Positions 9,803-49,750 of a stretch of 64,000 nucleotides of DNA are shown here, in pieces; the stretch's first letter is position 1; the number at the start of each line of letters is the position of its first letter. The DNA is from Longimicrobiales bacterium. GTDB taxonomy: Bacteria > Gemmatimonadota > Gemmatimonadetes > Longimicrobiales > Gaopeijiaceae. Location: assembly GCA_041690395.1 (NCBI GenBank), contig JAWLHJ010000005.1, forward strand, positions 448,001-512,000. The letters run 5' to 3'. The notes beneath the pieces were generated by a model. The model ran no database searches. It was given only the letters and a program-made list of their open reading frames with translations, and was not told the DNA's origin. A program made the position numbers and the translations under genes.

Positions 9803-12460
9803 TCAGCGTCCGGTGAGCGCCTCCACCGGGTCGACCCGCGCGGCCCGGCGCGCGGGCACGTACGACGCTATCGCCACCACGACGCCGAGTACAGCCGTGG
9901 CGATCAGGAGCGCGGCGGCATCGAGCGGTTCCACACCCATCGTGAAGGCTCCGGCGTTCGGTGCCACGACCGCGACGGCCAGGGCGCCCAGCGCGAATCC
10001 GACCGCCACCGTCGCGAGAACACGGCCGGTGACGAGCCGGATGACGCGCCCCGGCTCGGCGCCCAGCGCGATGCGGAGCCCGATCTCGGAGCGGCGCCCC
10101 GCCACCGTCAGCGAGACGATCGTGTAGATGCCGATGCTGGCCAGAATCAGGGCGAGCAGCGAGAAGAGGCCGAGCACCCCGGTCGCCAGCCGCGGCCCCG
10201 CGAGCGCCGCTGTCAGGTGGCCCCGCATGGTGTCGAGACGGTCCACGGGCAGCCGGGGGTTCAGCTCGCGAAGCGTCGAGCGCATGACGGGCAGGAGCGA
10301 GGCGGGATCCACGTCAGCGCTCACCACGAAGGTGGGCGCATCGACGGCGGACTCGGGCATGGCATAGTAGAGCATGGGAAGGTCGGGACCGCCCAGGTCG
10401 CCCACCGTGACGTCGGAGACGACGCCCACGACCTGGACCCATGCGTCGGGCGCTCCCTGCGGCCGGACGCGCCCCCCGATCGCCGCGTCGGGGTCGCCCC
10501 AGAAGCGGCGGGCGGCCGTCTCGTTCACGATGACCGACTGGCGCGGGCCGATGCGGTCGTTGGGTCCGTAGCCTCGTCCGGTGACGACCGACATGCCGAC
10601 GGTCTCGAAGTAGCCGGGACTGACGTACGCGAACGGGAGCTCTACGGACCCGGTGCCCACCTGCGGGTCGTACCCTTCCACGACCGTCGTCGTGCTGCCG
10701 CCCCCCGACACCGGGATCCGCGTGGTGAGCGCCACGGACGACACGCCCGGGATCGCCTCGAGCCGCTCGATCAGGGTGGCGGCCGTGGCCTGGCGGCTCT
10801 CTGGCTCGATTCCGGCCTGCGAGAACGTGGTCCTCAGCAGGGCGAGGCGGTCGACCTCCACTCCCGTGTCGATCTGTTGATAGCGGGCCAGCCCGCTCAC
10901 CATGAGGCTCGCCCCCACGACCAGCACTACGGACGCCGCGACCTGGACAGCCACCATGCCGTCGCGGAAGAGGAACGCGCGTCGGTTGCCAGAGACGGCG
11001 GTCTCGTCCCGGAGCGCCCCGGCCACGTCCGTACGTAGCGACTGCAGCGCCGGCGCCCATCCGAAAAACACGCCGGTACCGACCATGAGTGCGACAGCGA
11101 ACAGCCCGACCTGCGGGTCGAGGCTCACGTCGAGGGCGCCGCCTCCGGCCGGGCTCGGGATGGTGCGCATGACGGAGATCAGCCACCCGGCGAGCACCAA
11201 CCCGACCCCGCCCCCGAGCAGGGAGAGGAGCAGCCCTTCGGACACGAACAGGCCGGCGACCCGCCCCTGGCCCGCGCCGAGCGCGCGCCGCACCGCGATC
11301 TCCGGCCCGCGCGCCATCCCGCGGACGAGGAGGAGGCTGCCCAGGTTCGTGGCCGCCAGCACCAGCACCAACCCGACGATGCCCATGATCGCCGCGGCGA
11401 CGGCCCGGATGTTGGCGTCCTCCGAGGGATGGACCCGCACGTCGGTGGCCGGGAAGACCGTGATGCCGCGCCCCTCGTTGAGCTCCGGGAACCCTTCGGC
11501 CAGCCGCAGGGCGAGCGCGTCCATGGCCTCCCGGGCCCGCGTGAGGGTGACCCCGTCGGCGAGGCGGGCCCGGACGTCGTACCAGTGGTCCTGCCTTCGC
11601 TCGAGATTCGTGACGCGGTAGCTGCCGCCGACGGGCGTGCTCGAGATCGAGAGCCAGAAGTCCGTGACCGCGAAGCCGAAAACGCCGTTGAAGTCCCGCG
11701 GCCCGACCCCGATCACCTCGACCGGCTGCCCGTTGAGCTCGATTGTCCGCCCGATCAAGCCGGCGTCCGAGCCGAACCGGCGTTCCCAAGCGGCGTGGCT
11801 CACCACCGCGAAGTGACCGGCGCCGACCTCGTCCATTCCCGTGTCGAACCAGCGACCCCGGTGGGGCGTGAGTCCGAGCGTGGGCAGCAGCGTCGACGTC
11901 GTGTACTCGATGGCTACGGACTGCGTGCCCTCTCCGACCGTGAGGTTGGCGGATTCGGGGGACGTGGCTCCGACCGCCGCGAAGACGTCCGTCGTGGCCA
12001 GCATGTCGAGGTACGCCGGGTACGAGGTCGATGCCGGCTCGCCGTCGTCGGAGTCCTGGTAGACGTGGACTACCCGCTCGACGTCGGCGTAGGGCGGCCG
12101 CTCGAAGAGCGCAGCGTGGACCAGCGCGAACATCGCCGTGTTGGCGCCGATGGCGACCGCGACGATCGCCACGGCGCCCAGCGTGAAGAGCGGCGTCGCG
12201 CGTAGTCTCCGCAGCGCGTATCCCATGTCCTGAACCCATCCACGCATGCCACCCCTCCCGCTCCGGTTCTCGATCAGCCCACTCGTGGTCCAGGTCCGGG
12301 CCACGTCCCACAGCGTCGCGGCCACCACGACGGCAAGACTCATCGCGCTCCCGGACCGTGCTCGTTCCAACCGCGCCGCGACGAGCGCCTCCATCTCGGC
12401 GCCGTGCTCGTGACGGAGCCCTGCCGGGTACAGCGAGCAGAGGACCCGCGCGAGCCTCAT
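9803..12460 (-). CDS. ADOP-type duplicated FtsX/MacB ABC permease (cassette A)
   Basis: AIGANTAMF, EIAVRRALGA, EIGLRIALGA, PARRAARVDPVEAL; start MRLARVLCSLYP overlaps the padR stop (ATGA). Confidence 0.92.
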   Translation of the reverse strand: MRLARVLCSLYPAGLRHEHGAEMEALVAARLERARSGSAMSLAVVVAATLWDVARTWTTSGLIENRSGRGGMRGWVQDMGYALRRLRATPLFTLGAVAIVAVAIGANTAMFALVHAALFERPPYADVERVVHVYQDSDDGEPASTSYPAYLDMLATTDVFAAVGATSPESANLTVGEGTQSVAIEYTTSTLLPTLGLTPHRGRWFDTGMDEVGAGHFAVVSHAAWERRFGSDAGLIGRTIELNGQPVEVIGVGPRDFNGVFGFAVTDFWLSISSTPVGGSYRVTNLERRQDHWYDVRARLADGVTLTRAREAMDALALRLAEGFPELNEGRGITVFPATDVRVHPSEDANIRAVAAAIMGIVGLVLVLAATNLGSLLLVRGMARGPEIAVRRALGAGQGRVAGLFVSEGLLLSLLGGGVGLVLAGWLISVMRTIPSPAGGGALDVSLDPQVGLFAVALMVGTGVFFGWAPALQSLRTDVAGALRDETAVSGNRRAFLFRDGMVAVQVAASVVLVVGASLMVSGLARYQQIDTGVEVDRLALLRTTFSQAGIEPESRQATAATLIERLEAIPGVSSVALTTRIPVSGGGSTTTVVEGYDPQVGTGSVELPFAYVSPGYFETVGMSVVTGRGYGPNDRIGPRQSVIVNETAARRFWGDPDAAIGGRVRPQGAPDAWVQVVGVVSDVTVGDLGGPDLPMLYYAMPESAVDAPTFVVSADVDPASLLPVMRSTLRELNPRLPVDRLDTMRGHLTAALAGPRLATGVLGLFSLLALILASIGIYTIVSLTVAGRRSEIGLRIALGAEPGRVIRLVTGRVLATVAVGFALGALAVAVVAPNAGAFTMGVEPLDAAALLIATAVLGVVVAIASYVPARRAARVDPVEALTGR

Positions 12461-12795: not shown

Positions 12796-12812
12796 CGAGG
12801 CTCCGTGTTGAA

Positions 12813-12853
12813 GTATCCGCAACAGATATATCTACAGCGGATACATATGTCAA
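12813..12853 (-). promoter_or_regulatory. Palindromic operator overlapping the padR-A promoter
   Basis: gtatccgc-aac-agatatatct-aca-gcggatac (12813-12844) inverted repeat; TTGACA on the minus strand at 12848-12853. Confidence 0.7.
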
Positions 12854-12953
12854 ACGAGGCGTCTGGCCCTGGAGCGTCACGCGAGACGTTGCCCGGCGCC
12901 CCGACCGTGGCCCATGATGCGGTACCGTGCCCGCAGCCATCAGAGGAGTCGTC

Positions 12954-14168: not shown

Positions 14169-14221
14169 GGCGCCACGCGGCCGGCCCGGAGCCGAGGTCG
14201 GCTGCCGGCCCGCGTGCCAGA

Positions 14222-15858: not shown

Positions 15859-15886
15859 CGGGGGCCAGCCGACCGGGGGCGAATCG

Positions 15887-16231: not shown

Positions 16232-16300
16232 CATAGGTCGGGGAGTCGTGGTCGGCGCATGTGCACCGGTCCCCCCCTGGCCGCCTGGTCCGGGGATGGG

Positions 16301-16624
16301 ATGGGGGATCCGAGGATGACGCAGGTGACCGCGCTGGTGCTGCGCGCCGTCGCCGCGGGACACGCGTTCGGCTTCGACGTGATGGAGCGGTGCGGGCTTC
16401 CCAGCGGTACCGTGTACCCTGCGCTTCGACGCCTCGAGCGGGCCGGCTGGCTCGCCGCGGCTTGGGAGGATGCCGACACCGCGCACGCCGAGGGACGCCC
16501 GAGACGGAGGACCTACGCGCTCACCGAGCGCGGCCGCCGGGGCATGCCCGAGGCGGAGGCCAAGATCGCCGAGGTGGAGCGGGTGCTCCGCGACGCACCG
16601 GGGCCGGACGCGCGGGAGGCCTGA
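16301..16624 (+). CDS. PadR family transcriptional regulator (cassette B)
   Basis: FGFDVME..GLPSGTVYPALRRLE, RPRRRTYALTERGR; start 16301 or 16316. Confidence 0.92.
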   Translation: MGDPRMTQVTALVLRAVAAGHAFGFDVMERCGLPSGTVYPALRRLERAGWLAAAWEDADTAHAEGRPRRRTYALTERGRRGMPEAEAKIAEVERVLRDAPGPDAREA

Positions 16625-16627
16625 GCG

Positions 16628-19243
16628 GTGAGAAGGCTCTGGCTCCTGTCCGTCTGCCTGCTCGTCCCCCGGGACGAGCGCGTGGAGTGGGTGGAGGAGT
16701 GGGAAGGGGAGCTCGCCGCCTCCGGGTGGCGTTGGGTCGACGCGTTCGGGGCCCTCCCGGACGCCTGGCACTTGAGACGGGATGGGTGGACGATGGGACG
16801 CATGACGCAGGACGTGAGGCACGCGATCAAGGGACTCTGGCGGAAGCCCTTCTTCACCGCGCTCGCGGGGCTGACGCTCGCGATCGGCATCGGCGCGAAC
16901 ACCGCTATCTACAGCGTGGTCGACAGCGTGCTGCTCGACCCTCTGCCGTATCCGGAGAGCGACCGGCTCTACACGGTGAACCACACGGCCCCGGGTCTCG
17001 GCGTGCCGATCCTCCCCTACTCCGAGGGGATGTACCTGATGTACGCCGACGCCCTGGCCAGCCTGGACGGCCTCGCCGTCTTCCAGATGGACAACGTGAA
17101 CCTCGTGTTGGGGTCCGAGCCCGAGCGACTGTCTTCGGCCCGGGTCACGCAGCGCTTCTTCGACGTGCTCGGGGTACCTCCCACGCTCGGACGCACCTTC
17201 GTGGCGGGCGAGGACCGGGAGGGCGCGGAGCCGCTCGCGGTGCTCGGCTACGGTCTCTGGCGGCAGACGTTCGGCGGTGACCCTTCGGTGGTCGGCCGGA
17301 CGGTCGAGATGGACGGCGTCATGAGGCGGGTGATCGGCGTCATGCCCGAAGGCTTCCAGTTTCCCCAGGACGCCGAGATGTGGACGCAGCTCGAGGTCGA
17401 TCCGGCGGACGCCGACCAGGGGTCGTTCAGCTACATGGGGATAGGGCGGCTGACCGCGGGGGCCACGCCCGAGGCGCTCAACCAGGAGATGGACCAGCTC
17501 CTCCTCCGGTTCGCGGACGTGAACGGCGACGACCTGCCGCGCACGGTCCTGGAGCAGGGACAGATCCGCGGCGACGCCAAGCCCCTGAAGGAGATGTACG
17601 TCGAGGACATCCGGCAGGCGCTGTGGGTCGTGCTCGGAACGGTGGGCTTCGTGCTCCTGATCGCCTGCGCCAACGTCGCCAACCTCTTCCTCGTGCGCGC
17701 GGAGGCGAGGCAGCGGGAGCAGGCGGTACGGACCGCCATGGGCGCGACCCGCGGCGACATGATCCGGCACTATCTCACCGAGAGCGTGACGCTGGGTCTC
17801 GGTGCCGGCGTCATCGGCCTCGGGCTCGCCAGCCTCGGCGTGCGGGGCCTGTTGGCGATGGCTCCGGTGGCGCTCCCCCGGGCGGCCGAAGTCGGGATCG
17901 ACGGGAGTGTGCTCGCGTACACGGCGGTGATCTCCATCCTCTCCGGCCTGCTTTTCGGGCTCTTCCCGGTGTTCGGATACGCCAACCGTGACCTGTCGGG
18001 GGCCTTGAAGGAGGGCGGGCGGTCGTCGACCACCGGCAGGGGGCGGAGCCGGGTCCAGAGTGGGCTCGTCGTCGCCCAGGTCGCGCTGGCGCTCATGCTG
18101 CTGGTCGGCTCGGGGCTGATGGCCCGCAGCTTCGCGGCGATCCGCTCGGTCGATCCGGGCTTCGAGGAGGAGGGCAGACTGACGTTCCGGATCTCGCTTC
18201 CCTCCGCCGAGTACCCGGAGGTCGAGGACGCAAGCGCGTTCTACCGAGCGTTCCGGGATCGTCTCGAGGCCGAGCCGGGCGTGACCCGGGCGGCGCTCGC
18301 GTCGTCCATGCCGCTCACGGGATCGCGGGCCCAGAGCTCGTTCCGACCCGACGACCAGCCCCTCCCCGAGGGAGAGCTCGGTCCGCTCGTGAACCTGCAC
18401 TGGGCCGGGCCTGGATACTTCGAGGCCATGGGGATCGAGATCGTGGAGGGCCGTGGGCTCGGGGAGGACGACGCGGCCGGCGGACTCCGGTCCGTCGTGG
18501 TGAGTGAGCGGATGGCCCGCCAGCTCTGGCCCGGCGAGGGGTCCGTGCTCGGACGTCGTATCGTGGGCATGGGCGACACCGACGAGAGCTGGGAGATCGT
18601 CGGCGTGGTGCGGGACGTGCACTTCGAGAGCCTGTCCGAGGAGCCCGGGCTGATGGCGTATTTCCCACTGGTGTCGGGGGACTCGGACGCCGCGTTCGCC
18701 CAACGGGCCCTCTCCGTGGTGGTGCATGGAAGGGGGGACCCGCTCGCGCTCGTCGACGGCGCGCGGCAGGCGCTCCGCGAGGTGGACGGACGGCTGCCGA
18801 TGGTCGATCCCCGACCGCTGGCCCGGGTCGTGAGTGAGGCGAGCGCCGCGACGTCGTTCACCGTCGTGCTCCTCGGCATCGCGGCGAGCATCGCGCTCCT
18901 GCTCGGGGCGGTCGGGATCTACGGCGTCATCTCGTACGTGGTGGGGCGGCGCACCCAGGAGATCGGCGTGCGGATGGCCCTCGGCGCACCGGCGGGGCTC
19001 GTGCTGCGGAACGTCATCGGGCAGGGGATGGCCCTCGCCGGAACCGGGGTGGTGGTCGGCCTGGTCGGCGCGTGGGGCGCGAGCCGGGTGCTCGCGTCGC
19101 TCCTGTACGGGGTGAGCGCGACGGATCCCACGACCTATGCGGTCACCGCGGGCGCGCTGGCGTTCGTGGCGCTGGTGGCGTCGTGGCTCCCGGCCCGCCG
19201 GGCAGCCGGACTCGACCCGGTGAGGGCGTTGAAGGCGGAGTAG
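16628..19243 (+). CDS. ADOP-type duplicated permease (cassette B)
   Basis: LAIGIGANTAIYSVV, LLIACANVANL, RRTQEIGVRMALGA, PARRAAGLDPVRALKAE. Confidence 0.95.
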   Translation: MRRLWLLSVCLLVPRDERVEWVEEWEGELAASGWRWVDAFGALPDAWHLRRDGWTMGRMTQDVRHAIKGLWRKPFFTALAGLTLAIGIGANTAIYSVVDSVLLDPLPYPESDRLYTVNHTAPGLGVPILPYSEGMYLMYADALASLDGLAVFQMDNVNLVLGSEPERLSSARVTQRFFDVLGVPPTLGRTFVAGEDREGAEPLAVLGYGLWRQTFGGDPSVVGRTVEMDGVMRRVIGVMPEGFQFPQDAEMWTQLEVDPADADQGSFSYMGIGRLTAGATPEALNQEMDQLLLRFADVNGDDLPRTVLEQGQIRGDAKPLKEMYVEDIRQALWVVLGTVGFVLLIACANVANLFLVRAEARQREQAVRTAMGATRGDMIRHYLTESVTLGLGAGVIGLGLASLGVRGLLAMAPVALPRAAEVGIDGSVLAYTAVISILSGLLFGLFPVFGYANRDLSGALKEGGRSSTTGRGRSRVQSGLVVAQVALALMLLVGSGLMARSFAAIRSVDPGFEEEGRLTFRISLPSAEYPEVEDASAFYRAFRDRLEAEPGVTRAALASSMPLTGSRAQSSFRPDDQPLPEGELGPLVNLHWAGPGYFEAMGIEIVEGRGLGEDDAAGGLRSVVVSERMARQLWPGEGSVLGRRIVGMGDTDESWEIVGVVRDVHFESLSEEPGLMAYFPLVSGDSDAAFAQRALSVVVHGRGDPLALVDGARQALREVDGRLPMVDPRPLARVVSEASAATSFTVVLLGIAASIALLLGAVGIYGVISYVVGRRTQEIGVRMALGAPAGLVLRNVIGQGMALAGTGVVVGLVGAWGASRVLASLLYGVSATDPTTYAVTAGALAFVALVASWLPARRAAGLDPVRALKAE

Positions 19244-21728: not shown

Positions 21729-22082
21729 ATGCCTTCCGACAGCCTGCTCACGCCCCTGGAGTTCCACGTGCTGATCGCCCTCGCCCGGGGCGACGCGTAC
21801 GGCTACGCCCTCATGACCGCGGTCGAGGAGGAGTCGTCCGGGCGGGTCGCGCCGGATGTGGGCAGCCTGTACCGGGTCCTGGCGCGGCTGATGGCGCGCG
21901 GGCTCGTCGAGGAGCGGCCGACGCCGAAGGACGCCGACCAGGACCACCCTGGAAAGGCTCGCCGGTACTACGGCCTCACGGACGAAGGTCGCGCGACCGC
22001 GGCCGATGAGGCCCGCCGGATGGCCGAGCTGGTCGATCTCGCTCAGGCCCGGCGCCTCTTCGCCGCCGGAGACTCGTCGTGA
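21729..22082 (+). CDS. PadR family transcriptional regulator (cassette C)
   Basis: LTPLEFHVLIAL...YGY...GSLYRVL...RRYYGLTDEGR; GGAG SD. Confidence 0.92.
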   Translation: MPSDSLLTPLEFHVLIALARGDAYGYALMTAVEEESSGRVAPDVGSLYRVLARLMARGLVEERPTPKDADQDHPGKARRYYGLTDEGRATAADEARRMAELVDLAQARRLFAAGDSS

Positions 22083-24739
22083 GGGTTGCGCGCCTGCTGG
22101 TTGCCGCTGCCCTCCGCACGCTCCCAGCCCCCTTCCGCCGGAGGTTCGGCGAGGCGATGGCCGACACGGTCGACGCCGGCCTGAGCGCACGGCGGGGGCT
22201 CACGCGTCTCGCCTTCCTCGTTCGCTCGCTGGCCGGGATCGTCCTGGTCGGGATTCGCGAGCGGATCTCGCCGACTCCGCACCCGGCGGAGCGGCCGTCA
22301 CACTCCGGTCGCGCACCCCTCATGGATTCCGTTCTGCAAGAGTTCCGGTTCGCCGTGCGAGCCCTCCGCCGCCGGCCCGCGTTCACGTTCGTCGCCGTCC
22401 TTACGCTGGCGCTCGGGATCGGGTCCACGACCGCGGTCTTCAGCGTCGTGAACGGCGTCCTGCTCCGGCCGCTTCCGTATCCGGAGGCGGACCGGGTGAT
22501 GGCCGTCTCGACGTACCAGACGCCGGACGGACCGGGCGAGCGCCGCTGGAACATGTCCCAGCCCGACCTCGAGAGCGTGCGGGCGAGCGCGAGCTTCGCC
22601 GCGGTGGAAGGATGGTCCAGCAGCACGATGACGCTCACCGGAGACGGCGACCCCCGGCTCGTCGTGGGCACTCGGGTCACCGGGGGGCTCCTGCACGTGT
22701 TCGGGCTCTCGCCGCACCTGGGCCGGGACCTCGAGCATGACGAGAACATGCCCGGCGCCGCACCCACGGTCGTCGTGTCGCACGCCTTCTGGCGGACGCA
22801 GCTCGGCGGGAGCCCGGACGTGCTGGGCTCGACCCTGGAGATCGCCGAGGAGTCGTACGAGATCGTCGGCGTCGCCCCCGCCGGATTCGACTACCCGCGG
22901 GAGGCCGAGCTCTGGATCCCCCGGCGACTCGACACGGAGGGGTGCGGGCGGGGGTGCCATACGTTTCAGACCGTCGCGAGGCTGGCCGAAGGGGTCGGCT
23001 TCGAACAGGCGAGACAGGAGCTGTCCGCGCTCGCTGCCTCGTTGGCCGACGCGTTCCCGGACTCGAACTTCCAGAAGGGGATGCGCGTGGAGCGCCTCGT
23101 CGACTACCTGGTCGGCGACGTTCGACGGGGTCTCTGGATGCTGCTGGGCGCCGTGGGCGTCGTGCTGCTCATCGCCTGCGTGAATGTCGCCAACCTCCTG
23201 CTCGTCCGCGGCTCGAGTCGCACATCGGAGGTGGCCGTCCGCTCGGCCCTCGGTGCGGGTCCGACGCGGGTCGTGGGAGCGGTGCTCGTCGAGAGCGCGG
23301 TGCTCGCCGGGGCGGGCGCCTTGTTGGGCCTCTTGGTGGCGTGGGGCGCGGTGGGTGCGCTCGATCTCGTTCCACCCGGAGCGGTGCCGCGCCTCGACGC
23401 CGTCTCCCTCGACGGGACCGTGTTGCTCTTCGCCTCGAGCGTGACGGTGGCCGTCACGCTCCTGTTCGGTCTCTGGCCGGCCCTCAGGCTCGCACGCACG
23501 GCGCCCGCCGGTGACCTCGGTGGAGCCGCACGCTCCGGCGGGAATCGGACGGACGCGCGCAGCCGCTCGACGCTTCTTGCGGCCGAGGTCGCGCTGTCGG
23601 TGGTTCTGCTCGCCGGGGCAGGCCTTTTCGTGCGCAGCTTGTCCGAGCTGACCACCGTCGACCTGGGATTCCAGGAGCGGGAGATCGTCCGGTTCTCTCT
23701 GAGCCTCCCGTCCGCGCGGTACGACGAGCTTCCCGAGATCGCCGGACACTACCAGGAGCTGGAGGCCCGGCTTCTCGCGCTGCCCGAGGTCGAGGCCGTC
23801 GGCTCCACGTACGATGCTCCGCTCGGCTTCGTGAGCATCTCCGGGGAGGTCCGGGTGCAGGGGCGGCCCATTCCAGGCCCGGGCGAAGGCAACGAGGCGT
23901 ATCTGCGGCCGTCGACGCCCGGCTTCTTCGAGGCGATCGGCCTTCCGGTGCTTCGGGGGAGGGGAATCGAGCCGAGCGACCGTGCGGAGTCGGAAGCGGT
24001 CGTCGTGGTGAACGAGGAGTTCGTGCGGCAGAACTTCCCCGACGAGGAGGTGCTCGGCCAGCGGATCGGCGTGACCGCGGGGTGGCGCTACCAGCGCGAC
24101 AGCCTTTACACGGTCGTCGGCGTCGTGCCCGACACCCGGTCGCGGCTCTCGGACCCTCCCGTGCCCGCCGTGTATCTGCCCCACGCTCAGTTCGGCCCCG
24201 GAAATCTGACGGTGCACATGCGTGGCCGGACCGGCGCCACGGGGCTCATCGAGCGCGCACGAGAGGAAGTGCGCGCCCTCGATCCGGGTCTGCCGCTCGC
24301 CCGTGTGGAGACCCTCGGCGAGGCCGTCCGGCGCGGCACCGCGACCACGCGCTTCTACCTCTCGATCGTCGCGATCTTCGCGGGACTCGCCGTGGTGATG
24401 GCGGCGGTTGGGCTCTACGGCGTCGTGTCGTACCTGGTGTCGCGCAGGACACGGGAGATCGGCATTCGCGTCGCTCTCGGGGCCGGCACGGAGCGGGTGA
24501 GGCGGATGGTCGTGATGGAGGGGCTCCGGCCGGCGCTCGCCGGTCTGGTGCTCGGGATCGGCGGGGCGCTCCTCGCGGGCCGGGTCCTCGACGGGCTCCT
24601 GTTCCAGGTCCAACCCGGGGATCCGTCGGTGTTGGGGGCGGTCGCGCTGATCCTGCTCGCGGTGGCGACCGTCGCGACCATCGTTCCCGCGGCGCGCGCG
24701 ACCCGAGTCGACCCCGTGACGGCGCTTCGGGCGGACTGA
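22079..24739 (+). CDS. ADOP-type duplicated permease (cassette C)
   Basis: LALGIGSTTAVFSVV, LLIACVNVANLLL, RRTREIGIRVALGA, PAARATRVDPVTALRAD; GTGA overlap with padR. Confidence 0.95.
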   Translation: MRVARLLVAAALRTLPAPFRRRFGEAMADTVDAGLSARRGLTRLAFLVRSLAGIVLVGIRERISPTPHPAERPSHSGRAPLMDSVLQEFRFAVRALRRRPAFTFVAVLTLALGIGSTTAVFSVVNGVLLRPLPYPEADRVMAVSTYQTPDGPGERRWNMSQPDLESVRASASFAAVEGWSSSTMTLTGDGDPRLVVGTRVTGGLLHVFGLSPHLGRDLEHDENMPGAAPTVVVSHAFWRTQLGGSPDVLGSTLEIAEESYEIVGVAPAGFDYPREAELWIPRRLDTEGCGRGCHTFQTVARLAEGVGFEQARQELSALAASLADAFPDSNFQKGMRVERLVDYLVGDVRRGLWMLLGAVGVVLLIACVNVANLLLVRGSSRTSEVAVRSALGAGPTRVVGAVLVESAVLAGAGALLGLLVAWGAVGALDLVPPGAVPRLDAVSLDGTVLLFASSVTVAVTLLFGLWPALRLARTAPAGDLGGAARSGGNRTDARSRSTLLAAEVALSVVLLAGAGLFVRSLSELTTVDLGFQEREIVRFSLSLPSARYDELPEIAGHYQELEARLLALPEVEAVGSTYDAPLGFVSISGEVRVQGRPIPGPGEGNEAYLRPSTPGFFEAIGLPVLRGRGIEPSDRAESEAVVVVNEEFVRQNFPDEEVLGQRIGVTAGWRYQRDSLYTVVGVVPDTRSRLSDPPVPAVYLPHAQFGPGNLTVHMRGRTGATGLIERAREEVRALDPGLPLARVETLGEAVRRGTATTRFYLSIVAIFAGLAVVMAAVGLYGVVSYLVSRRTREIGIRVALGAGTERVRRMVVMEGLRPALAGLVLGIGGALLAGRVLDGLLFQVQPGDPSVLGAVALILLAVATVATIVPAARATRVDPVTALRAD

Positions 24740-24882: not shown

Positions 24883-25221
24883 ATGGAACTGCTCCAGGGC
24901 ACCCTCGACGTCATGATCCTGAAGGCCCTGGAGTGGGGGCCGCGCCACGGCTATGCCGTGAGCCGGTGGATCAAGAGCACCACCCGGGATGTCCTGACGG
25001 TCGAGGAGGGGGCGCTCTATCCGGCGCTCCACCGCTTGCGGCGCAAGGGGCTGGTCGAGTCGGAGTGGGGCGTATCCGAGAACAACCGGCGGGCGAAGTT
25101 CTACGCGCTCACGCCGAAGGGGCGCCAGGCGTTGGCCGAGGAGGCCGACAGTTGGGACGCCTACGCGAGGGCCGTCGACCGGGTCCTCAAGGCGGAGTCG
25201 CCGGGAGGCGCGAACGGATGA
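24883..25221 (+). CDS. PadR family regulator, acidobacterial (TIGR03433-like) type (cassette D)
   Basis: ELLQGTLDVMILKAL...HGY...VEEGALYPALHRL...WGVSENNRRAKFYALT. Confidence 0.95.
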   Translation: MELLQGTLDVMILKALEWGPRHGYAVSRWIKSTTRDVLTVEEGALYPALHRLRRKGLVESEWGVSENNRRAKFYALTPKGRQALAEEADSWDAYARAVDRVLKAESPGGANG

Positions 25222-28091: not shown

Positions 28092-28151
28092 ACTACGAGT
28101 ATAGTTGACATCGGGCCCACCTCGTCGTATCCTGGCTACTAAGATACTAGT
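28092..28151 (+). promoter_or_regulatory. Sigma70 promoter TTGACA-N17-TATCCT flanked by two ACTA-N6-TAGT operators
   Basis: -35 at 28105-28110, -10 at 28128-28133; actacgagtatagt (28092-28105) and actaagatactagt (28138-28151). Confidence 0.8.
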
Positions 28152-28170
28152 ACATCAGCCAGGAGGCCCG

Positions 28171-38187: not shown

Positions 38188-40869
38188 TCACTCGCCCCGA
38201 AGCACTTCCATGGGGTCGAGTGAGGCCGCCCGCCTCGCGGGAAACACGCTGGCCGCCACGGCCACCGCGGGGACCGTGATCAGAACGCCGAGGAAGACCC
38301 AGGGATCGCGGGGGCTGGCCGTGAAGAGCGCGGACGCCAGGAACGGCGCGACCGCGAACGCGACGGCCAACCCGAGCGTGGTGCCGGCGCCCACGATGAC
38401 CAGGCCGTCCCGGACGACCTTCCGAGCCACCTGTCCGCGCCGAGCGCCAATGGCCATCCGAATCCCGATCTCACCGACACGCTGCCGGACCCCGTACGAC
38501 ACAACGCCGTAGAGCCCCGCCACGGCGAGGAGTAGGGCGGCGCCCGCGAAGCCGAGCATGAGCCACATGCTCGCGCGCCGGGCCCAGAGCGCATCGGCCA
38601 TGACCTCTGCCATGGTCGTGACCCGGAACATTGCCACGCCAGGCGCCTGTTCCGTGAGGGCGGCCCGGAGCGACTCCGTGAGGCGGGTCGGCTCGCCGGC
38701 GCTCCGGACGGCGATGTTCATCGCGCTCGGAGGAAGCTGTGGCAAGGGCACCCAGACCCCGGGGCGCATGGGCTCGTCGAGCCCGTAGTGCTTCGTGTCG
38801 GCGGTGACGGCCACGACCGTCCACCAGTCGCGGCCTCCCGTGCGTACCCGCGCGCCCACGGGCTCCTCGAGGTGGCCCAGGAACTCCCGAGCGAAGGTCT
38901 CGTTGACCACGACGACCCCCGCGCCTTCGTCCCTTCCGTCGGATGCCGTGAGGGCCCGACCCTGGACGATCTGCACACCCATCGTCTCCAGATAGCCCGG
39001 ACTGATGGCCCGAACCAGGACGACGGGGTTCGCCTCGCCGTCGGCACGCTCCGGGGCGCCCTCCGCCTGGAAGAAGTATCCACTGTGGCCCCGGAGCGGC
39101 AGGATCGTGGTCGCGCCGGCCGAGACGACGCCCGGGACGGCCTCGACCCGCTCGAGATGTTCGGTCCAGAAGCGGACCCGCTCCGCGGGCGTGGGATAGC
39201 GCTCGGCCGGGAGCTGCACGGTGTAGGCGAGCACACCCTCCGTCCGGAACCCAGGCTCGACATCCTGAAGGGCCTGCGCGTCCCGGAGGGTGACCCCCGT
39301 CACGACCAGTAACATACACGCGAGGGCGATCTGTCCGGCCACCAACATGCCGGTCGCGCGGACCTGCCGTTGTCCGGCCGTGCCGCGGGAGGTGGTCGTG
39401 CTGAACGACCCCGAGGCTTGCGCGCGTGACAGGCGGAGCGCCGGGAACATCCCGAAGAGCACGGCGGTGGCCGCCGTCGCGATCACGGTGAACAGCACCA
39501 GGCGCCCGTCGATGTCGAAGCGGACCCACGGTGGAAACTGGTCCCCGAGGCGGAACACCATGAGGCCCGACAGCCAGACACCCACACCTGCTCCGGCGAC
39601 CCCTCCCGCGAGCGCGAGCACGAGGCTCTCGGTGAAGAGATGACGCACGATGCGACCCCGCCCGGCACCCATTGCCAACCGGATCTCGATCTCCCGCTGT
39701 CGGCCCAGCGCTCGAACCAGCGTGAGTCCCGCGATGTTCGCACACGCCAGGAGAAGGATCACGCCCACCGCGCCGACGAGCACATGGAGGCCGGTGCGTG
39801 CGTCGCCGAGATACCGTTCCCTGAGGGAGCTCACGACCGGGAAGGTCACCTCGTTGACGGACCATCGATCCACGAGGCTTTTGTGCACGCGCGTCAGGTC
39901 CTCCTCCGCTCCGCTCAGGGTCACGCCGGGCAGGAGGCGCCCGACACCCTGATAGGAGAACGCATCGTGCGTGCCGGGGTCCTCCTGCAGGGGGACCCAG
40001 AGATCGGCATCCTCGACGAAGGAGGCCTCCGGCGGGATTACGCCCAGGACCTGGAACACGCGATCGTCCAAGGTCACCGTCCCACCGACGACCGACGGGT
40101 CCCGACCGTAGGCCTGTACCCAAAGCCCATGGCCGAGCAACGCCACGAGCGGACCATCCGGCACGTCCTCGCTCTCGTTGAACAGTCGGCCCTCGACGGG
40201 CTCGATGCCCAGCGTCGTCGCCAGATCGTGGGAGGCCCGTACGAGGCTCACACGGGTTGCGCCGTCCACGCCCTGCAGACTCGCGCCCCCCACGTCGTAG
40301 ACGGCCATGGACTCGAAGGTCCGGTTGCCGTCCCGCCACGCCGCGAAGTCCGCGTACGCCATCCCGGTGAAGTCAAGATTCCACTGGGGCGCCCGCGTAT
40401 CCAGATCGACGAGGCGCCCGGCATCCTCGAAAGGAAGGGATCGGACGAAGAGCCCATCGTAGACGCGAAACACCGCGGTGTTGGCCGCGACCGCCATCAT
40501 CATGATCGCCACCACGGTGATCGCGTACGCCGGCTGCCTGGACAGGGACCGGACCGCGTAACGGATATCGTAGACCAGAGCACGCATCGAAGACTCCCCC
40601 TCGTCGGTTCTCCCCCGCCGGGCACCGGCCCGGACCCCCACCCTCTCCAGCACCGCGTGGCGCGCCGTATCGAACGCCAACGCACCCCAGAACCCGATCC
40701 CCGTCGAGCGCCCCGATCTGCTCCGGTCGGCCAGCATATCGGCCACGAGGCGCTCGGCCGCCCTACCGTGCTCACGCCTCCAGGCGGGCGGCATCAGGAG
40801 CAGAAGCGCCCGATACCAGAGCGGAGCACGCCGATCGCGACTCGGTGGTGGGACGTCGGGATCGGTCAC
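38188..40869 (-). CDS. ADOP-type duplicated permease (cassette E)
   Basis: AANTAVF, LLLACANIAGL, EIEIRLAMGA, EIGIRMAIGA, PARRAASLDPMEVLRGE; GTGA overlap with padR. Confidence 0.93.
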   Translation of the reverse strand: MTDPDVPPPSRDRRAPLWYRALLLLMPPAWRREHGRAAERLVADMLADRSRSGRSTGIGFWGALAFDTARHAVLERVGVRAGARRGRTDEGESSMRALVYDIRYAVRSLSRQPAYAITVVAIMMMAVAANTAVFRVYDGLFVRSLPFEDAGRLVDLDTRAPQWNLDFTGMAYADFAAWRDGNRTFESMAVYDVGGASLQGVDGATRVSLVRASHDLATTLGIEPVEGRLFNESEDVPDGPLVALLGHGLWVQAYGRDPSVVGGTVTLDDRVFQVLGVIPPEASFVEDADLWVPLQEDPGTHDAFSYQGVGRLLPGVTLSGAEEDLTRVHKSLVDRWSVNEVTFPVVSSLRERYLGDARTGLHVLVGAVGVILLLACANIAGLTLVRALGRQREIEIRLAMGAGRGRIVRHLFTESLVLALAGGVAGAGVGVWLSGLMVFRLGDQFPPWVRFDIDGRLVLFTVIATAATAVLFGMFPALRLSRAQASGSFSTTTSRGTAGQRQVRATGMLVAGQIALACMLLVVTGVTLRDAQALQDVEPGFRTEGVLAYTVQLPAERYPTPAERVRFWTEHLERVEAVPGVVSAGATTILPLRGHSGYFFQAEGAPERADGEANPVVLVRAISPGYLETMGVQIVQGRALTASDGRDEGAGVVVVNETFAREFLGHLEEPVGARVRTGGRDWWTVVAVTADTKHYGLDEPMRPGVWVPLPQLPPSAMNIAVRSAGEPTRLTESLRAALTEQAPGVAMFRVTTMAEVMADALWARRASMWLMLGFAGAALLLAVAGLYGVVSYGVRQRVGEIGIRMAIGARRGQVARKVVRDGLVIVGAGTTLGLAVAFAVAPFLASALFTASPRDPWVFLGVLITVPAVAVAASVFPARRAASLDPMEVLRGE

Positions 40870-41171
40870 GTGACCGCGTTCCTCGCCGCACGGACCCATT
40901 CAGCCAGCATGTCGGTCTCTTCCTTGAGGCGAGCCCGCCCCGGACCCGTCAGCGCGTAGTACTGGCGACGCTCGTCCTCCGCCTCGCCCGGCGGCGTCCC
41001 GACCTGCTCGACCATGCCCTCGTCCTCGAGCGTGGCCAACGATCGGTAGAGCATGGCCGGCCACAAGGTCATATGCCCCGCCGTGGCGTCCAGGACCGCG
41101 CGTTGGATGCCGAAGCCGTGCAGCGGCTTGTCCGCCAGTGCGAGGAGGATGTGGTACCACTGGGGCTTCAT
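40866..41171 (-). CDS. PadR family transcriptional regulator (cassette E)
   Basis: WYHILLALAD..LHGFGI...LWPAMLYRSL...RRQYYALTGPGR; start 41171 or 41186. Confidence 0.92.
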   Translation of the reverse strand: MKPQWYHILLALADKPLHGFGIQRAVLDATAGHMTLWPAMLYRSLATLEDEGMVEQVGTPPGEAEDERRQYYALTGPGRARLKEETDMLAEWVRAARNAVT

Positions 41172-41228
41172 TGGACGACCGATCATCGAGACCTCGACGG
41201 AAGGACGCGCCGGCTCGGCGGCAATTGC

Positions 41229-41270
41229 ATCACATAAGACTAGTATTGTGTGATATCAATATGTGCGCAA
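41229..41270 (-). promoter_or_regulatory. AT-rich palindromic operator upstream of padR-E
   Basis: atcacataa-g-actagt-a-ttgtgtgat (41229-41254) followed by atcaatatgtg. Confidence 0.65.
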
Positions 41271-44015: not shown

Positions 44016-44034
44016 GTCGTATACGAAACACGAC
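44016..44034 (+). promoter_or_regulatory. Possible operator upstream of padR-F
   Basis: gtcgt-atacgaaac-acgac, containing the palindrome tcgtatacga. Confidence 0.45.
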
Positions 44035-44052
44035 ACACGAACGGGAGTGGAG

Positions 44053-44373
44053 ATGTCGGTCGGAGAACTGGAGGTGCTGCTGCTACTGGCGGTCCTGCGG
44101 CTCGATGAAGAGGCGTACGGAGTCGCGATTCGCGACGAACTCGATGCGCGCACCGGTCGAAGGCTGACGCGCGGCGCGGTCTACACCGCACTCCGTCGCC
44201 TCGAATCCAAGGGGCTGATCGAAGGCCGTCTCGGGGAGGCCACGCCGGTTCGTGGCGGACGGGCGAAGCGGTACCTGAGCCTCACCCCATCGGGCATTGC
44301 GGCGGTCCGGTCCGCGGCGAACGACCTGGACCGGATGCGTGCCGGCCTCGACCTCTCCACCGAGCCGGGCTGA
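44053..44373 (+). CDS. PadR family transcriptional regulator (cassette F)
   Basis: VGELEVLLLLAV...AYGVAI...GAVYTALRRLE.KG...RGGRAKRY..LT..G. Confidence 0.93.
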   Translation: MSVGELEVLLLLAVLRLDEEAYGVAIRDELDARTGRRLTRGAVYTALRRLESKGLIEGRLGEATPVRGGRAKRYLSLTPSGIAAVRSAANDLDRMRAGLDLSTEPG

Positions 44374-47018
44374 TGCGTCCGTCGATCGCCATGCGCCGGC
44401 TCCTCGACCGCCTGCTCGGTCCTGATGAGCAGCATCATGTCGGTGACCTGGATGAGGAGCTCGCTCGACGCACGGGCGCGCGCACGCCGAACTGGAAGGA
44501 CGAGCTCTGGTACCTCCGAGAGGCCACATCCCTCCTGCTGGCCTACCTGCGCGGCCACCTGTTCCCCCGGCCCACACTGCGCTCCGCCCCAACCCACACC
44601 ACCAGGAGCCCCCGCATGTTCGAAGACCTGTTGCGCGATCTCCGCATGGCGCTGCGCTCCTCGATCCGCACCCCGGGCGTGACGCTGGTAGTCGCCACCA
44701 CTCTGGCGGTGGCAACCGCCGCGACCATCGCGATGTTCGCCGTGGCCGATGCGGCCTTCCTGCGGCCGCTTCCCTGGCCCAATGAGGAGCGGCTCGTGCG
44801 CTTCCATACGGGCTTCGACGGCGGGAGCGGCTCGGTGGACGCGATATCGCCCCTCGACGCCAGAGGGATTGCCTCGGCGACGGGACAGATCGAGGAGGTC
44901 GGGATCTGGACCCTGGGGGAGACCGTGCACCTCACCAGCGTGGTGGAGCCGGTTCGCCTGGAGGCGCCGCGGGCCTCGGTTGGGCTCTTCAGGATCCTGG
45001 GTGCGGAGCCCGTAGCAGGTCGCTTCTTCGTCGCCGACGAGGAGGTCCCCGGCGGGGACCGGGCCGTGGTGCTATCACACCGGCTTTGGACCGATGCATG
45101 GGGTGCGGATCCGGGCGTCGTCGGGACCAGCATCGAGCTCGACGGAGCGGCCTACCAGGTGGTGGGGGTCGCGCCCAAGAACGGGATGCTCCCGGTGGGC
45201 GCGGATCTGTGGCGGGCCCTCGCCCTCGGACCCGAGTGGTACGAGGAGGACCGATGGGGCTGGCAGTTCCTCGCCGCCCTGGGACGGCTGACCCCCGGGA
45301 CGGACGTGGCGACGGCGCAGACCGAGCTGACCCGCCGCTTCGTGGAAGAGACGGCCGGGAGCAGGGAAGGGCAGATGCGCGTCCTCCGACCCCTGAGAGA
45401 GGAACTGGTGGGGAGCGCCCGTGCCGGCATCCTCGTGCTCTCGATCGCGGTGGGTCTGCTTCTGCTCATCGCCTGCCTCAACATCGCTTCGGTCCTCCTG
45501 GCCCGCGCCCAGACGCGGGCTGCGGAGTTCGGGCTGCGGCGGGCGCTCGGCGTGGGGGGGAGTCGGCTGGCCCGTCAGGTGATGCTGGAGACCGGCGTCA
45601 TGGCCACGCTGGGTACCGCGGCCGGCCTCGGGCTCGCCGCCGCAGCGATCCGGTTCCTCTCGCTCTCGCAGCTCGAAGCCCTGTTCGCTCTGGGACCCCT
45701 CTCGATCGACCTCCGGGTCGGGGCCTTCGCCGTAGCGATCGTGCTCATCGCGACGGTCGCCTTCGGAATGGCACCCGTGGCCGCCGCCATCGGCGCCGAC
45801 CCTGCCGGTGCCCTCCAGGGAGGGACGCGGCGAACGGCGGGCGGTCGGAGCGCGACGCGGCTGCGGGCCGGTCTGGTGACGGCACAGATCGCCGTGGCCC
45901 TGGTCCTCCTGGTGGCGGTGAGCGTCTCCACGTCGACCTATCGCGGGATCTCGAGCCGTGATCAGGGCTTCGATCCCGATGGGGTTCTGGCGACATCCGT
46001 CGAGCTGCCTGCCGGAACGGAGGCGGATGAGGCGTTCGCGCTCTATCGAGCGACCCTCGAACGGATGGCTGCGCTCCCGGGGGTGGAGTGGGCGGGGGGC
46101 GGCAGCTACCTCCCGCTCGAAGGTACCGGATGGTCGGCCTCTTTCGCCATCGCCGAACCGGACGACCCGCTGGTCGATCCGGGCGCGAACATGCGCCCGG
46201 TTACGCCGGGATACTTCGAGGCGATGGGAATCCGTGTCCTGGAGGGCAGGGGCCTGACGGAATCCGACGTAGCCGGTGGCGTGCCCGTAGTCGTCATCGA
46301 CCGGACCGTGGCGGAGCGCTTCTGGCCGGAGAGCAGTCCCATCGGGAGCCAGGTCTCGGTGGGAGGCTTGTCGCGGGACCTGGCGACCGTGGTCGGCATC
46401 GTCACGGACGTTCCACATGAGCGGCCGGACCAGACGGACGGAGGGCACGTGTACTTCTCGCTCCTTCAACGGGCACAGCGATCGGTCACCTTCGTAGCGC
46501 GCACGGACGGCGACCCCCTGACCCTCGCCGAGCCCGTGCGGAGCATCCTACGGGAGGTTGCACCACGGGCCGCCGTGACCGACGTGTCCCTGATGGCCAC
46601 CCGCGTGCGCGCGTCGATGGCCGGTCCCCGGCTGAGCCTGACCCTCCTGGCGATCTTCGGGGGCGTAGCCCTCTTCCTGGCTGCCGTCGGAGTGTACGGG
46701 ATCCTGGCCTTCACCGTCGCACGCCGTACCCGCGAGATCGGCACCCGGTTGGCGCTGGGAGCCACGCCCAGGGCGGTCGTGGGGGCGGTGGTCCGGCAGG
46801 CGATGGGCTACTGCTGCGTCGGGATTCTCGTGGGTGGCATCTCCTCCTACCTGCTGCTCCAGTGGCTGACGCGCCTGGTCGTCGAGCTTCAGGGCGCGGA
46901 TGCCACGGCCTATCTCCTGGCGCCCGCCATCCTGGCGGCTTCCTCCGTGCTGGCCGCCCTTGTACCGGCGGTCAATGCTGCGCGGCTGGATCCGAACCTG
47001 GCGTTGCGGGAGGACTGA
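44373..47018 (+). CDS. ADOP-type duplicated permease with 'permease prefix domain 2'-like N-terminus (cassette F)
   Basis: GDLDEE...WYLRE prefix; LLIACLNIASVLLAR; RRTREIGTRLALGA; TGATG overlap with padR. Confidence 0.93.
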   Translation: MRPSIAMRRLLDRLLGPDEQHHVGDLDEELARRTGARTPNWKDELWYLREATSLLLAYLRGHLFPRPTLRSAPTHTTRSPRMFEDLLRDLRMALRSSIRTPGVTLVVATTLAVATAATIAMFAVADAAFLRPLPWPNEERLVRFHTGFDGGSGSVDAISPLDARGIASATGQIEEVGIWTLGETVHLTSVVEPVRLEAPRASVGLFRILGAEPVAGRFFVADEEVPGGDRAVVLSHRLWTDAWGADPGVVGTSIELDGAAYQVVGVAPKNGMLPVGADLWRALALGPEWYEEDRWGWQFLAALGRLTPGTDVATAQTELTRRFVEETAGSREGQMRVLRPLREELVGSARAGILVLSIAVGLLLLIACLNIASVLLARAQTRAAEFGLRRALGVGGSRLARQVMLETGVMATLGTAAGLGLAAAAIRFLSLSQLEALFALGPLSIDLRVGAFAVAIVLIATVAFGMAPVAAAIGADPAGALQGGTRRTAGGRSATRLRAGLVTAQIAVALVLLVAVSVSTSTYRGISSRDQGFDPDGVLATSVELPAGTEADEAFALYRATLERMAALPGVEWAGGGSYLPLEGTGWSASFAIAEPDDPLVDPGANMRPVTPGYFEAMGIRVLEGRGLTESDVAGGVPVVVIDRTVAERFWPESSPIGSQVSVGGLSRDLATVVGIVTDVPHERPDQTDGGHVYFSLLQRAQRSVTFVARTDGDPLTLAEPVRSILREVAPRAAVTDVSLMATRVRASMAGPRLSLTLLAIFGGVALFLAAVGVYGILAFTVARRTREIGTRLALGATPRAVVGAVVRQAMGYCCVGILVGGISSYLLLQWLTRLVVELQGADATAYLLAPAILAASSVLAALVPAVNAARLDPNLALRED

Positions 47019-47059
47019 TTGCCGCCGGGTCCGTGGGCGGAATCGTGTCGCGCGTCCAC

Positions 47060-49750
47060 TCAGCCCGGCCTCAGCGAAACCATCGGATCGACCTTCGCGG
47101 CGCGGCGCGCAGGCAGCCAGGCGGACACGAGTCCGACGACGGTGAGCAGGACCGGCGTCAGCACGAGCGCGACCGGATCCCACGGTTGCACGTGGAAGAG
47201 CAGGGAGCGCGCCGCGAGTCCCGCCACGAATGCTGCTGCGAGACCGACTGCCACTCCGGCGCCGATCCAGCGGAGGGCTTCACCAAGCGCGTGGCGCGTC
47301 AGCTCCGGACCGCGGGCGCCGAGCGCGAGCCTCACGCCGTACTCGCGCCGTCTGCGACGGACGGAGAACCCGACCGCACCCGCGAGCCCGATCGAGGCCA
47401 GCGCGAGAGCAGCACCGCCGAACAGCTGCATCAGCGCACCGCGTAGGCGGAACCCGGCGACGCGCTCGTCACGGTAGTCGGAGAGGGGTCGGATCGATCG
47501 CACCGGCTCCCGGGGATCGGCCTCTTGCACGGTGGCACGCAGAGCCGCCGCCTCGAGACGCGCGTTCGGGGTTCCCCGAACCACGATGCTCAGGCCGCGA
47601 CCAAGGCCGTTCCACGGTTCCTGGGCGGCCGACAAATAGACGTTGGGGTCGGGCTCCACGGCGGGCCCCCGTGCGTGGACGTCCTCGACGATGCCGACCA
47701 CCGCGAACGTGTCACCGTGCACCAGGGCGCGACGGCCGAGCACGTCCCCTTCCGGCCAGAACAGATCGGCTGCCGAACGGGAGATGACCATCGCTCCGGC
47801 CGCGTCGCGGTTGTCCTCCCAGCCCAGGGTCCTTCCGTGGATGAGGGGGACTCCGAGCGCCTCCAGGAATCCGGGTGTCGCGGACCGGACCTCCGCGCAG
47901 AGGGCTTCACCGGGCCCGCGCGGCGGGCCATCGAGAGGCGTGACCCCGTCGCAGGACCGATTGGTCGTGAGGGGCACGATGTCCGCGGCCCCCGCGGCAC
48001 GCACGCCGTCGAGCGCGGAGAGCCGACTGAACACATCGCGGTATACGGATGCGGCCTCATCGTCCGATCGCGCGAACATGCCGAGGCCATGCATTTCGAG
48101 CACGAGGGCGTCTTCCGTGTCGATCCCGAGATCCACGTCATAGAGTCGGGTCACACTTCGTGCCGTGAGGCCGGCTCCGAAAAGGAGCACCACGGTGGCT
48201 GCGATCTGGCCCACCAGAAGACCGCGTCGGAGGGGCCCGCTCAGGCCGGCGGCACCGGCGCGCAGGTCCGCACGGGCCAGACCATCTTCGGGAGTGATAC
48301 GCCCGAGCGGCAGCAGCCCCAGCACGAGGCTGACCCCCAGCACCACAGTGAGAACGAATGCGAGCACCTGCACGTCCAGCGTCAGGTCCTGGATGCCGGG
48401 TAAGCTGGTTGTGGCGAGCTGCCTGACGGCCTCGATGCCGGCGACCGCCAGCCCGATACCAGCCAGGCCGGCCGCGGCGGCGAGCACTGTTCCTTCCGCG
48501 AGGAGCTCGCCGAAGAGCTGGGCGCGGCTGGCTCCGAGGGCACGCCGAACTCGCCAATCGTTCGCGCGATCCACGGTTCGGTTGACGACCAGGCTCGCCG
48601 CGTTCAGGACGGATATCGCCAGGAGTATTCCAACGGACGCAAGCAGGACAATGAGCCCAGAGCGGACCGGACCGACGACGGGCTCCCGAATCGGGCTGAC
48701 GTGGATCGTCTGATCGCGGCTCTCCTCGGGATAGATCTCGCCCAGCGTGGCCATGACGTCCCGCGCTTCCGCTTCCGCGACGCCGATGCCTACACCTCCT
48801 GCGAGCCGCCCGATGCCCCGCCACGAGCGACCGCCCCTGGGCCAATCGGAGACGTCGATCCCCGACGTGCGCCAGATCTCGGGGATGTCGCCGTCGAATG
48901 TGAGAAGGCGCGGATCCTCATACCGCTCCGGGAGGACACCGACGATCTCGTAGCCGGTGCCGCTCATCTGTACGGTGCGTCCGACCACGTCCGCATCTCC
49001 ACCGAAGACGCGGATCCAGAGGTCGTGCGACAGGATAGCCACCGGGGCGCGTCCGGCACCTTCGTCGGCGGCAGTGAAGAGTCGGCCGAGGGCGGGGTCG
49101 ACTCCCAACAACCGGAAGTAGTTCCACGATACCGTCCCTCCCGGCGCGACCGTCGGTGGCCCGTCGCCGGGTTCGATGGCCGGGAGCCACGCGCGTATGG
49201 CTGCGGTCCCCGCGAAGGAACGCGAACGTTCGGCCAGATCTCTGACCTCGGGATAAGAGACCGTTCCGATCGTGATCGGTTCACCGATCCTGCCGCCCTG
49301 AAGGGCGACGAGCCGGTCCTCGTCCGGAAAACCGAGCGGCTGGAGCAGCACATGGTCCGCTACTGCGAAGAGCACGGTCGTACATGCAATCCCGAGGGCC
49401 AAAGTGCTCGCCCCCGCAACGAAGAAGCCGGGGCTCCGCGTCCATGAACGCACCGCCCGACGCACGGATCCCAAGCGCCAAACCTTCATCATGTCACCCA
49501 TCCTCCTCCCCCACACGGTTGATGCTAGATGGAGCGCATCCAGCGGCGCCCCTCGAACCCGCTCTTCCGCCAATGCCGCGGTCCCCTCATCCCAAATGGA
49601 GGACGGCCCGAAGTGTGCGTCCAACTCGCTTTCCCACTCTCGAAGCCAGCGACTGCGGTGCTGCCGCGGCACCATCCGAGCGCAGCGGCGGAGCCTCCTG
49701 CTGATCCTGGACCGGGCGGTCGCATGTCGACGCTCCGACCGAGGGTTCAT
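47060..49750 (-). CDS. ADOP-type duplicated permease (cassette G)
   Basis: TLALGIA, VRRALGA, REYGVRLALGA, PARRAAKVDPMVSLR; ATGA overlap with padR. Confidence 0.92.
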   Translation of the reverse strand: MNPRSERRHATARSRISRRLRRCARMVPRQHRSRWLREWESELDAHFGPSSIWDEGTAALAEERVRGAPLDALHLASTVWGRRMGDMMKVWRLGSVRRAVRSWTRSPGFFVAGASTLALGIACTTVLFAVADHVLLQPLGFPDEDRLVALQGGRIGEPITIGTVSYPEVRDLAERSRSFAGTAAIRAWLPAIEPGDGPPTVAPGGTVSWNYFRLLGVDPALGRLFTAADEGAGRAPVAILSHDLWIRVFGGDADVVGRTVQMSGTGYEIVGVLPERYEDPRLLTFDGDIPEIWRTSGIDVSDWPRGGRSWRGIGRLAGGVGIGVAEAEARDVMATLGEIYPEESRDQTIHVSPIREPVVGPVRSGLIVLLASVGILLAISVLNAASLVVNRTVDRANDWRVRRALGASRAQLFGELLAEGTVLAAAAGLAGIGLAVAGIEAVRQLATTSLPGIQDLTLDVQVLAFVLTVVLGVSLVLGLLPLGRITPEDGLARADLRAGAAGLSGPLRRGLLVGQIAATVVLLFGAGLTARSVTRLYDVDLGIDTEDALVLEMHGLGMFARSDDEAASVYRDVFSRLSALDGVRAAGAADIVPLTTNRSCDGVTPLDGPPRGPGEALCAEVRSATPGFLEALGVPLIHGRTLGWEDNRDAAGAMVISRSAADLFWPEGDVLGRRALVHGDTFAVVGIVEDVHARGPAVEPDPNVYLSAAQEPWNGLGRGLSIVVRGTPNARLEAAALRATVQEADPREPVRSIRPLSDYRDERVAGFRLRGALMQLFGGAALALASIGLAGAVGFSVRRRRREYGVRLALGARGPELTRHALGEALRWIGAGVAVGLAAAFVAGLAARSLLFHVQPWDPVALVLTPVLLTVVGLVSAWLPARRAAKVDPMVSLRPG

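Follow-up and report, generated by a model that had tools for sequence, protein, structure and literature searches.

The window, by which we mean the whole stretch of 64,000 nucleotides that was analysed, contained seven two-gene units (A to G). Each consisted of a padR-family regulator gene followed by a gene for a permease of 871-896 aa (Table 1).

All seven permeases exceeded the cut-off of the ADOP model TIGR03434 (622.3), scoring 667-872 bits, and in each the ADOP HMM match began directly past the internal Met marked in Table 1. The body of C, the one tested, contained two MacB_PCD and two FtsX stretches. The definition of ADOPs includes orphan status, i.e. the lack of an adjacent ABC ATPase gene. 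Scanning of the 29 other ORFs in the window gave a sole ABC_tran match, a two-domain ABC-F-like protein at 52803. A shared ATPase was also considered and set aside: a motif search yielded five MacB/LolD-like ATPases, and one of these, examined together with its neighbours, looked like FtsE. Among the regulators, only PadR D passed the cut-off of the acidobacterial PadR model TIGR03433 (101.8), and the other six matched it with E values of 1e-8 to 1e-14.

The N-terminal 55-94 residues of the window permeases, designated the head, had a mass of 6.6-10.5 kDa and did not reach transmembrane-level hydrophobicity. Four head types were distinguished. T1 (in D) corresponded to perm_prefix_1, and T3 partly to perm_prefix_2 (NF038404), to which several T3 heads elsewhere in the genome belonged; the head of F was assigned to T3 by our own HMM only. 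T2 (A, C and E) and T4 (B and G) had no family name. The T2 heads matched none of the 21 NCBIfam head models scanned, and the T2 and T4 heads of the window gave no Pfam match. The T2 profile found 11,811 representatives; in many of these the fusion partner was another membrane protein, and in some it was a domain that appeared to be soluble. The idea of a single head family was abandoned, as profile comparison gave weak links among T2, T3 and T4 (probability 7-21%) and none to T1.

None of the seven window heads passed the cut-off of the Pfam HAAS model (PF22564), and among the other heads scanned the best match was that of a T3 head (E 0.18). The predicted structure of the E head consisted of three helices (pLDDT 71). 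HAAS has three helices in succession, the third being kinked at a GxP motif, and the T2 consensus has no GxP. A Foldseek search with the head fold returned no PDB match. The heads resemble HAAS by context yet fail the Pfam HAAS test.

Table 1. Features of the seven padR-permease units, with positions in the window and anti-SD pairing energies (kcal/mol) of the internal sites
Feature	Position	Strand	Remarks
padR A	12457..12822	-	ORF bounds
Permease A long form, 885 aa, head T2 + ADOP body	9803..12460	-	start overlaps padR stop (ATGA)
A internal SD GGGAGG + ATG 12247	12245..12259	-	-11.1
padR B	16259..16624	+	ORF bounds
Permease B long form, 871 aa, head T4	16628..19243	+	GTG start, own SD
B internal SD-like GGGATGGGTGG + ATG 16793	16779..16795	+	-9.6; kept in orthologs L041 and L032
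padR C	21729..22082	+	ORF bounds
Permease C long form, 886 aa, head T2	22079..24739	+	
C internal ATG, without SD	22322..22324	+	-2.9; low GC3, open predicted structure
padR D	24883..25221	+	TIGR03433 above cut-off
Permease D long form, 889 aa, head T1 (perm_prefix_1, NF038403)	25218..27887	+	
D internal SD GGAGG + ATG 25446	25436..25466	+	-10.5; more in-frame ATGs at 25455 and 25464
Permease E long form, 893 aa from GTG 40869, head T2	38188..40869	-	
E internal SD GAGGGGGAG + ATG 40587	40585..40602	-	-10.4
padR E	40866..41186	-	
padR F	44047..44373	+	
Permease F long form, 881 aa, head T3	44373..47018	+	
F internal SD AGGAG + ATG 44616	44604..44618	+	-6.6; long start without SD (-2.8)
Permease G long form, 896 aa, head T4	47060..49750	-	
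G internal SD GGAGGAGG + ATG 49492	49490..49509	-	-12.4; also ATGs at 49501 and 49489
padR G	49747..50061	-	

The initial annotation had noticed an in-frame Met about 55-95 codons into each permease. All seven ATGs were found at the positions in Table 1, at 71 (A), 55 (B), 81 (C), 76 (D), 94 (E), 81 (F) and 86 (G) codons from the long start, with no stop between head and body. The SD strings and spacers that it had quoted for A, D, E, F and G were exact.

The anti-SD pairing energies of these sites were computed with the 16S tail read from the same genome. Energies as good as those of A, B, D, E or G occurred at just 0.5-3.7% of 3000 sampled internal ATGs. The SD of F was moderate (17% of internal ATGs as good). 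The site of B, previously described as weaker, proved to be strong, and its last 18 nt before the ATG were identical in an ortholog with saturated fourfold sites. The reported lack of an SD in C was borne out by a background energy (64% of the sampled ATGs as good). An SD-like site was thus present at the internal start in six of the seven genes. A set of 218 'true starts' was crude and served as a guide only.

The same arrangement was found in the rest of the genome, which contained about 50 ADOP genes. Among the 37 linked to padR, 23 had an ATG no more than 15 codons ahead of the conserved D/E, and in 20 it was accompanied by an SD of -8 kcal/mol or lower (hereafter, a strong site). Such a combination occurred in 2.3% of 4000 random coding windows of 15 codons and in 2.5% of ADOP-body windows. 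The possibility that SD-like motifs are no more frequent here than at other sites did not hold, and the pattern noticed at the junction is real and far above chance.

The comparison was extended to related organisms. A family search of 30 related genomes covered 150 of 520 matches, and 120 of the best-scoring non-own genes were taken, of which 113 passed the length and score filters; together with 49 genes of this genome they formed a set of 162, which leans toward high-scoring genes. HMMs that we seeded ourselves split this set into 89 genes with a head of one of the four types (headed genes) and 73 that lacked one. The start codon at the junction of head and body was chosen by position, blind to the SD.

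A start codon was present at the junction in 66 of the 89 headed genes (15 genomes), and 48 of the 66 had an SD of -8 or lower. The median SD of the junction starts was -10.45, vs -6.5 at the starts of head-less genes (n=70). At the junction of the 23 headed genes that lacked a start codon the median was -3.9, and it was -3.8 for 2674 Met codons in the bodies. At least one such second start was found in 11 of the 15 related genomes.

The nucleotide sequence around the site was also informative. SD strength peaked at the junction codon, with strong values in 48/66 genes vs 10-14/66 at linker positions 4-24 codons upstream. At codons -5 to -2, arginine was encoded by the rare codon AGG in 29 of 64 cases (45%), with a background of 5% and 15 of 191 cases further up the linker. 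Glycine at the same codons was encoded by GGC in only 3 of 64 cases, the background being 49%. The exact motif GGAGG occurred in all three frames (21, 10 and 15 times), and the observed SD mean of -9.3 exceeded in strength the -6.9 obtained by synonymous resampling.

An independent signature, the codon ramp with a GC3 dip that is typical of the 5' end of genes, lay further on. Downstream of strong internal starts GC3 changed by -0.094, and downstream of stand-alone starts by -0.079. The corresponding changes were +0.007 in headed genes without the start and +0.011 at body Mets. Predicted accessibility followed the same pattern, being higher at the strong internal starts.

The initial annotation had stated that the long forms rely on coupling to the padR stop. 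Six of the seven long starts did overlap the stop, but B, D and G had an SD of their own of about -10, so that reliance on coupling did not apply to all. Of 82 long starts in the larger set, 58 overlapped the padR stop and 36 had their own SD of -8 or lower; the internal SD was the stronger of the two in 45 of 62 genes.

The heads were conserved amid many synonymous changes and always in frame with the body. These features support the view that the long form is under selection and translated, and suggested that both forms are likely made. Separate heads were looked for upstream of 143 head-less genes, and a head or padR lay out of frame in just one (L125). There, a T1 head was put out of frame with the ADOP body by one frameshift, and the locus is either a pseudogene or an assembly error; it had no internal start. 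A head encoded as a separate ORF was accordingly rejected as a regular form.

By our own HMM, a padR gene lay directly upstream of 84 of the 89 typed heads; coupling to a stand-alone PadR gene is a constant trait of HAAS domains. Head type changed three times on the PadR tree, as few as four types allow, against 30 changes on the body tree, and PadR clades were strictly matched to head types. This indicated that padR and head travel as a matched cassette over exchangeable bodies. The match suggests direct binding between PadR and head, although shared inheritance alone could also give it. In one related genome (G015), the paralogs L040 and L049 had bodies 84% identical and PadRs 38% identical, as expected from a recent cassette swap near the junction; the strong internal start was present in one and absent in the other.

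Long imperfect palindromes were seen upstream of padR A (about 12813-12844, TATCCGC...GCGGATA) and padR E (about 41229-41254, ATCACA...TGTGAT). They are candidate PadR operators and are compatible with PadR auto-repression, which has been shown for PadR operons of Listeria, according to the accessible text of that report (PMC6624303).

Three other explanations of the internal site were weighed. The heads might have been fused recently and repeatedly to stand-alone permeases, leaving behind an old SD-ATG that is decaying and either unused or irrelevant. The location of the site agrees with such a history: an offset of -6 was found for 39 of the 66 headed junction starts and for 46 of the 70 head-less gene starts. 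Headed and head-less states were also interleaved on the body tree, with 39 changes, as repeated fusion would give, and tight fusions lacked the site. Mere decay, on the other hand, is hard to reconcile with the 12 co-inherited pairs, defined as those in which the bodies are reciprocal nearest neighbours and the PadR rank is 3 or better. In eight of the 12, both partners had an ATG with an SD of -8 or lower, while identity at fourfold sites was 0.34-0.47 vs 0.36-0.45 expected, i.e. at or near saturation. Linker residues differed in several of these eight (for example DEGESS vs YGWGDR), and the 5' ramp was kept in 14 of their 16 genes. Of the remaining four pairs, two had lost the ATG on one side and two had no strong site on either side. 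Retention of the site in eight saturated pairs makes a mere relic of recent fusion unlikely. The junction SDs were moreover stronger than those of head-less starts, with p 8e-7 uncorrected and p about 0.07 in independent pairs. The phylogenetically independent contrasts ran about 7:1 in the predicted direction (median p 0.07, not significant), from which it follows that the uncorrected p-values overstate the difference. A relic without function therefore appears quite improbable. Relic and function are not mutually exclusive, however, as the site sits at the native start of stand-alone ADOPs; from this shared position, it probably began as the native start of such a gene.

The internal start might instead belong to a second, shorter transcript whose promoter lies within padR or the head, providing a basal supply of permease independent of PadR. 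Such an mRNA would need the same SD, ramp and accessibility, and its ribosomes would face no competition with those elongating from upstream. An unusually strong SD would fit better with competition against upstream ribosomes on a shared mRNA, and we consider a separate transcript improbable. Even less weight was given to the notion that ribosomes pause at the G-rich run, or that a Gly/Arg linker gives rise to it as a by-product, the Met being kept as a structural residue. The linker is indeed G-rich along its length (median about -5), and synonymous resampling of the same residues already reached a mean of -6.9, vs -9.3 observed. However, the SD was gone where the start codon was gone, the 5' ramp was present only where the start was, and GTG stood in for ATG behind strong SDs: among Val codons at -6/-7 with an SD of -8 or lower, nine of 11 were GTG. 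This explanation is very improbable. A working internal start is well supported by the codon bias, the positional SD peak, the 5' ramp, the loss of the SD with the start codon and the retention in saturated pairs, all of them features of the sequence.

Our main reading is that the gene makes two proteins, the shorter from a selected second start at the junction of head and body, to which we assign a probability of roughly 0.65. Initiation at the internal site is in itself highly probable, and derivation of both forms from one transcript is rather likely. A role in feedback is less so. The proposal of two isoforms in the initial annotation was supported in part, namely as to the working internal start and a translated long form; the labels 'sensor' and 'transporter' given to them are interpretations.

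Under the two-protein reading, the long form would carry a soluble head at its N terminus, the predicted binding partner of its own PadR repressor, and the short form, 6.6-10.5 kDa smaller, would have the layout of a stand-alone ADOP permease. PadR would repress its own operon. The long form would be made mostly in step with padR through the overlapping stop and start, and would act as a membrane-tethered partner of PadR. The internal site, usually the stronger, would supply extra headless permease, and the amount of permease could be set without adding PadR-binding heads to the feedback loop. As to origin, stand-alone ADOP genes may have acquired a padR-head cassette time and again by way of what had been their 5' leader. 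Selection would then have preserved the native start where the linker is long, and tight fusions would have lost it.

A more general reading, which we regard as speculative and on the whole unlikely, is that the PadR-binding head is a portable tag, added in frame to an existing gene that keeps its own start. Only a tunable fraction of the protein would then report to the repressor, and in each cell dozens of membrane-sensing loops running in parallel would have their gain set by how the two ribosome-binding sites compare in strength.

The second start was not uniform over the wider family. In a genome-wide sample that was mostly Acidobacteria, a strong internal start was found in 2 of 19 headed genes. 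When metagenomes were scanned for T2 heads, 1 of 87 distinct ADOP fusions had an ATG with an SD of -8 or lower, and 17 reached -6; the metagenomic headed ADOPs were mostly linker-less fusions. Strong internal starts were rare in tight fusions (2 of 80) and frequent in those with a long linker (20 of 28). This showed the second start to be a property of long-linker fusions and not of the whole family. By sequence, it is common among the relatives of this organism and dispensable elsewhere, and the system would work without the short form in most lineages sampled.

The case for extending the second start to the non-ADOP partners of the T2 head was weak. Of 71 proteins, 36 had a Met among the 20 residues that follow the head, the counts in control windows being 25 and 17, and at the DNA level 1 of 10 usable loci had an SD of -8 or lower.

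Much of this system is already catalogued. The bodies (TIGR03434), the head of D (NF038403), several T3 heads (NF038404) and PadR D (TIGR03433) fall under existing family models, which are silent on a second start. The dyad formed by HAAS and a PadR-like wHTH includes HAAS domains fused to FtsX/MacB_PCD permeases, for which signal relay to PadR has been proposed (Ravi et al. 2024, PMC11237479). Our units are like this dyad in that padR lies next to a multi-TM protein bearing a helical domain at its N terminus, and differ from it in the internal start, neither start nor isoforms being mentioned in the accessible text of that paper. The padR-permease pair, the head and the relay between PadR and head having been described or proposed before, the second start is the added element. 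The literature searched, which took in few subscription papers and no supplements, contained no description of a second start in PadR-linked permeases.

In-frame internal initiation is known to produce CheA-S beside CheA-L, CcmM35 beside CcmM58, and a product of SpaO (PMC13515050), as well as ArcB-C (Meydan et al., 10.1101/520783), as far as the accessible text of these reports goes. As in the ADOP genes, an SD and a start at a domain boundary there yield an isoform without the N-terminal interaction or signalling part. Those are single genes with experimentally shown products, whereas the ADOP starts are known from sequence alone and differ in extending over dozens of paralogs with four head types and in lying within a polytopic membrane protein.

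In Listeria, according to the accessible text, the PadR proteins of LltR-Lmo0600 and LstR (PMC6624303) and of LftR/LftS-LieAB (10.1101/2023.07.27.550809) auto-repress operons that contain a DUF1700-type membrane protein. The small co-regulator LftS is needed for induction, and overproduction of the membrane protein is harmful (PMC6624303; 10.1101/2023.07.27.550809). LftS is a co-regulator distinct from LftR, and the accessible text of these reports makes no mention of a two-start arrangement.

ADOP permeases form a large paralog family of unknown function. Internal initiation recurring over a whole paralog family of polytopic membrane proteins would be unusual, and a single annotation per gene would be incomplete, whichever start a pipeline takes. 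The junction start also offers an experimental handle: one silent mutation would separate the headed and headless forms and put the unproven signalling between head and PadR to the test.

The design of a domain joined in frame to an ADOP that keeps its own start was also seen with a different regulator pair. At L322:1104-1750 (G000 C1, about 862,600-863,250), a Phd/YefM antitoxin gene (PF02604) was followed by a domain fused in frame to an ADOP body with an internal SD-ATG. We take this domain, which had no Pfam match, to be RelE-like. Relatives were L051 and L057, and in L057 the internal SD was a run of GGA codons.

Two ADOP genes of the genome appeared to be broken (G000 C3, + strand, 456044-458656, and C5, + strand, 388753-389791), one being split into two ORFs and the other truncated.

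Within the window, the same cluster contained another one-component membrane sensor, a BlaR1/M56 peptidase fused to TonB_C (28542-29807). The ORF upstream of it and overlapping it (28105-28545) may encode a BlaI-type repressor.
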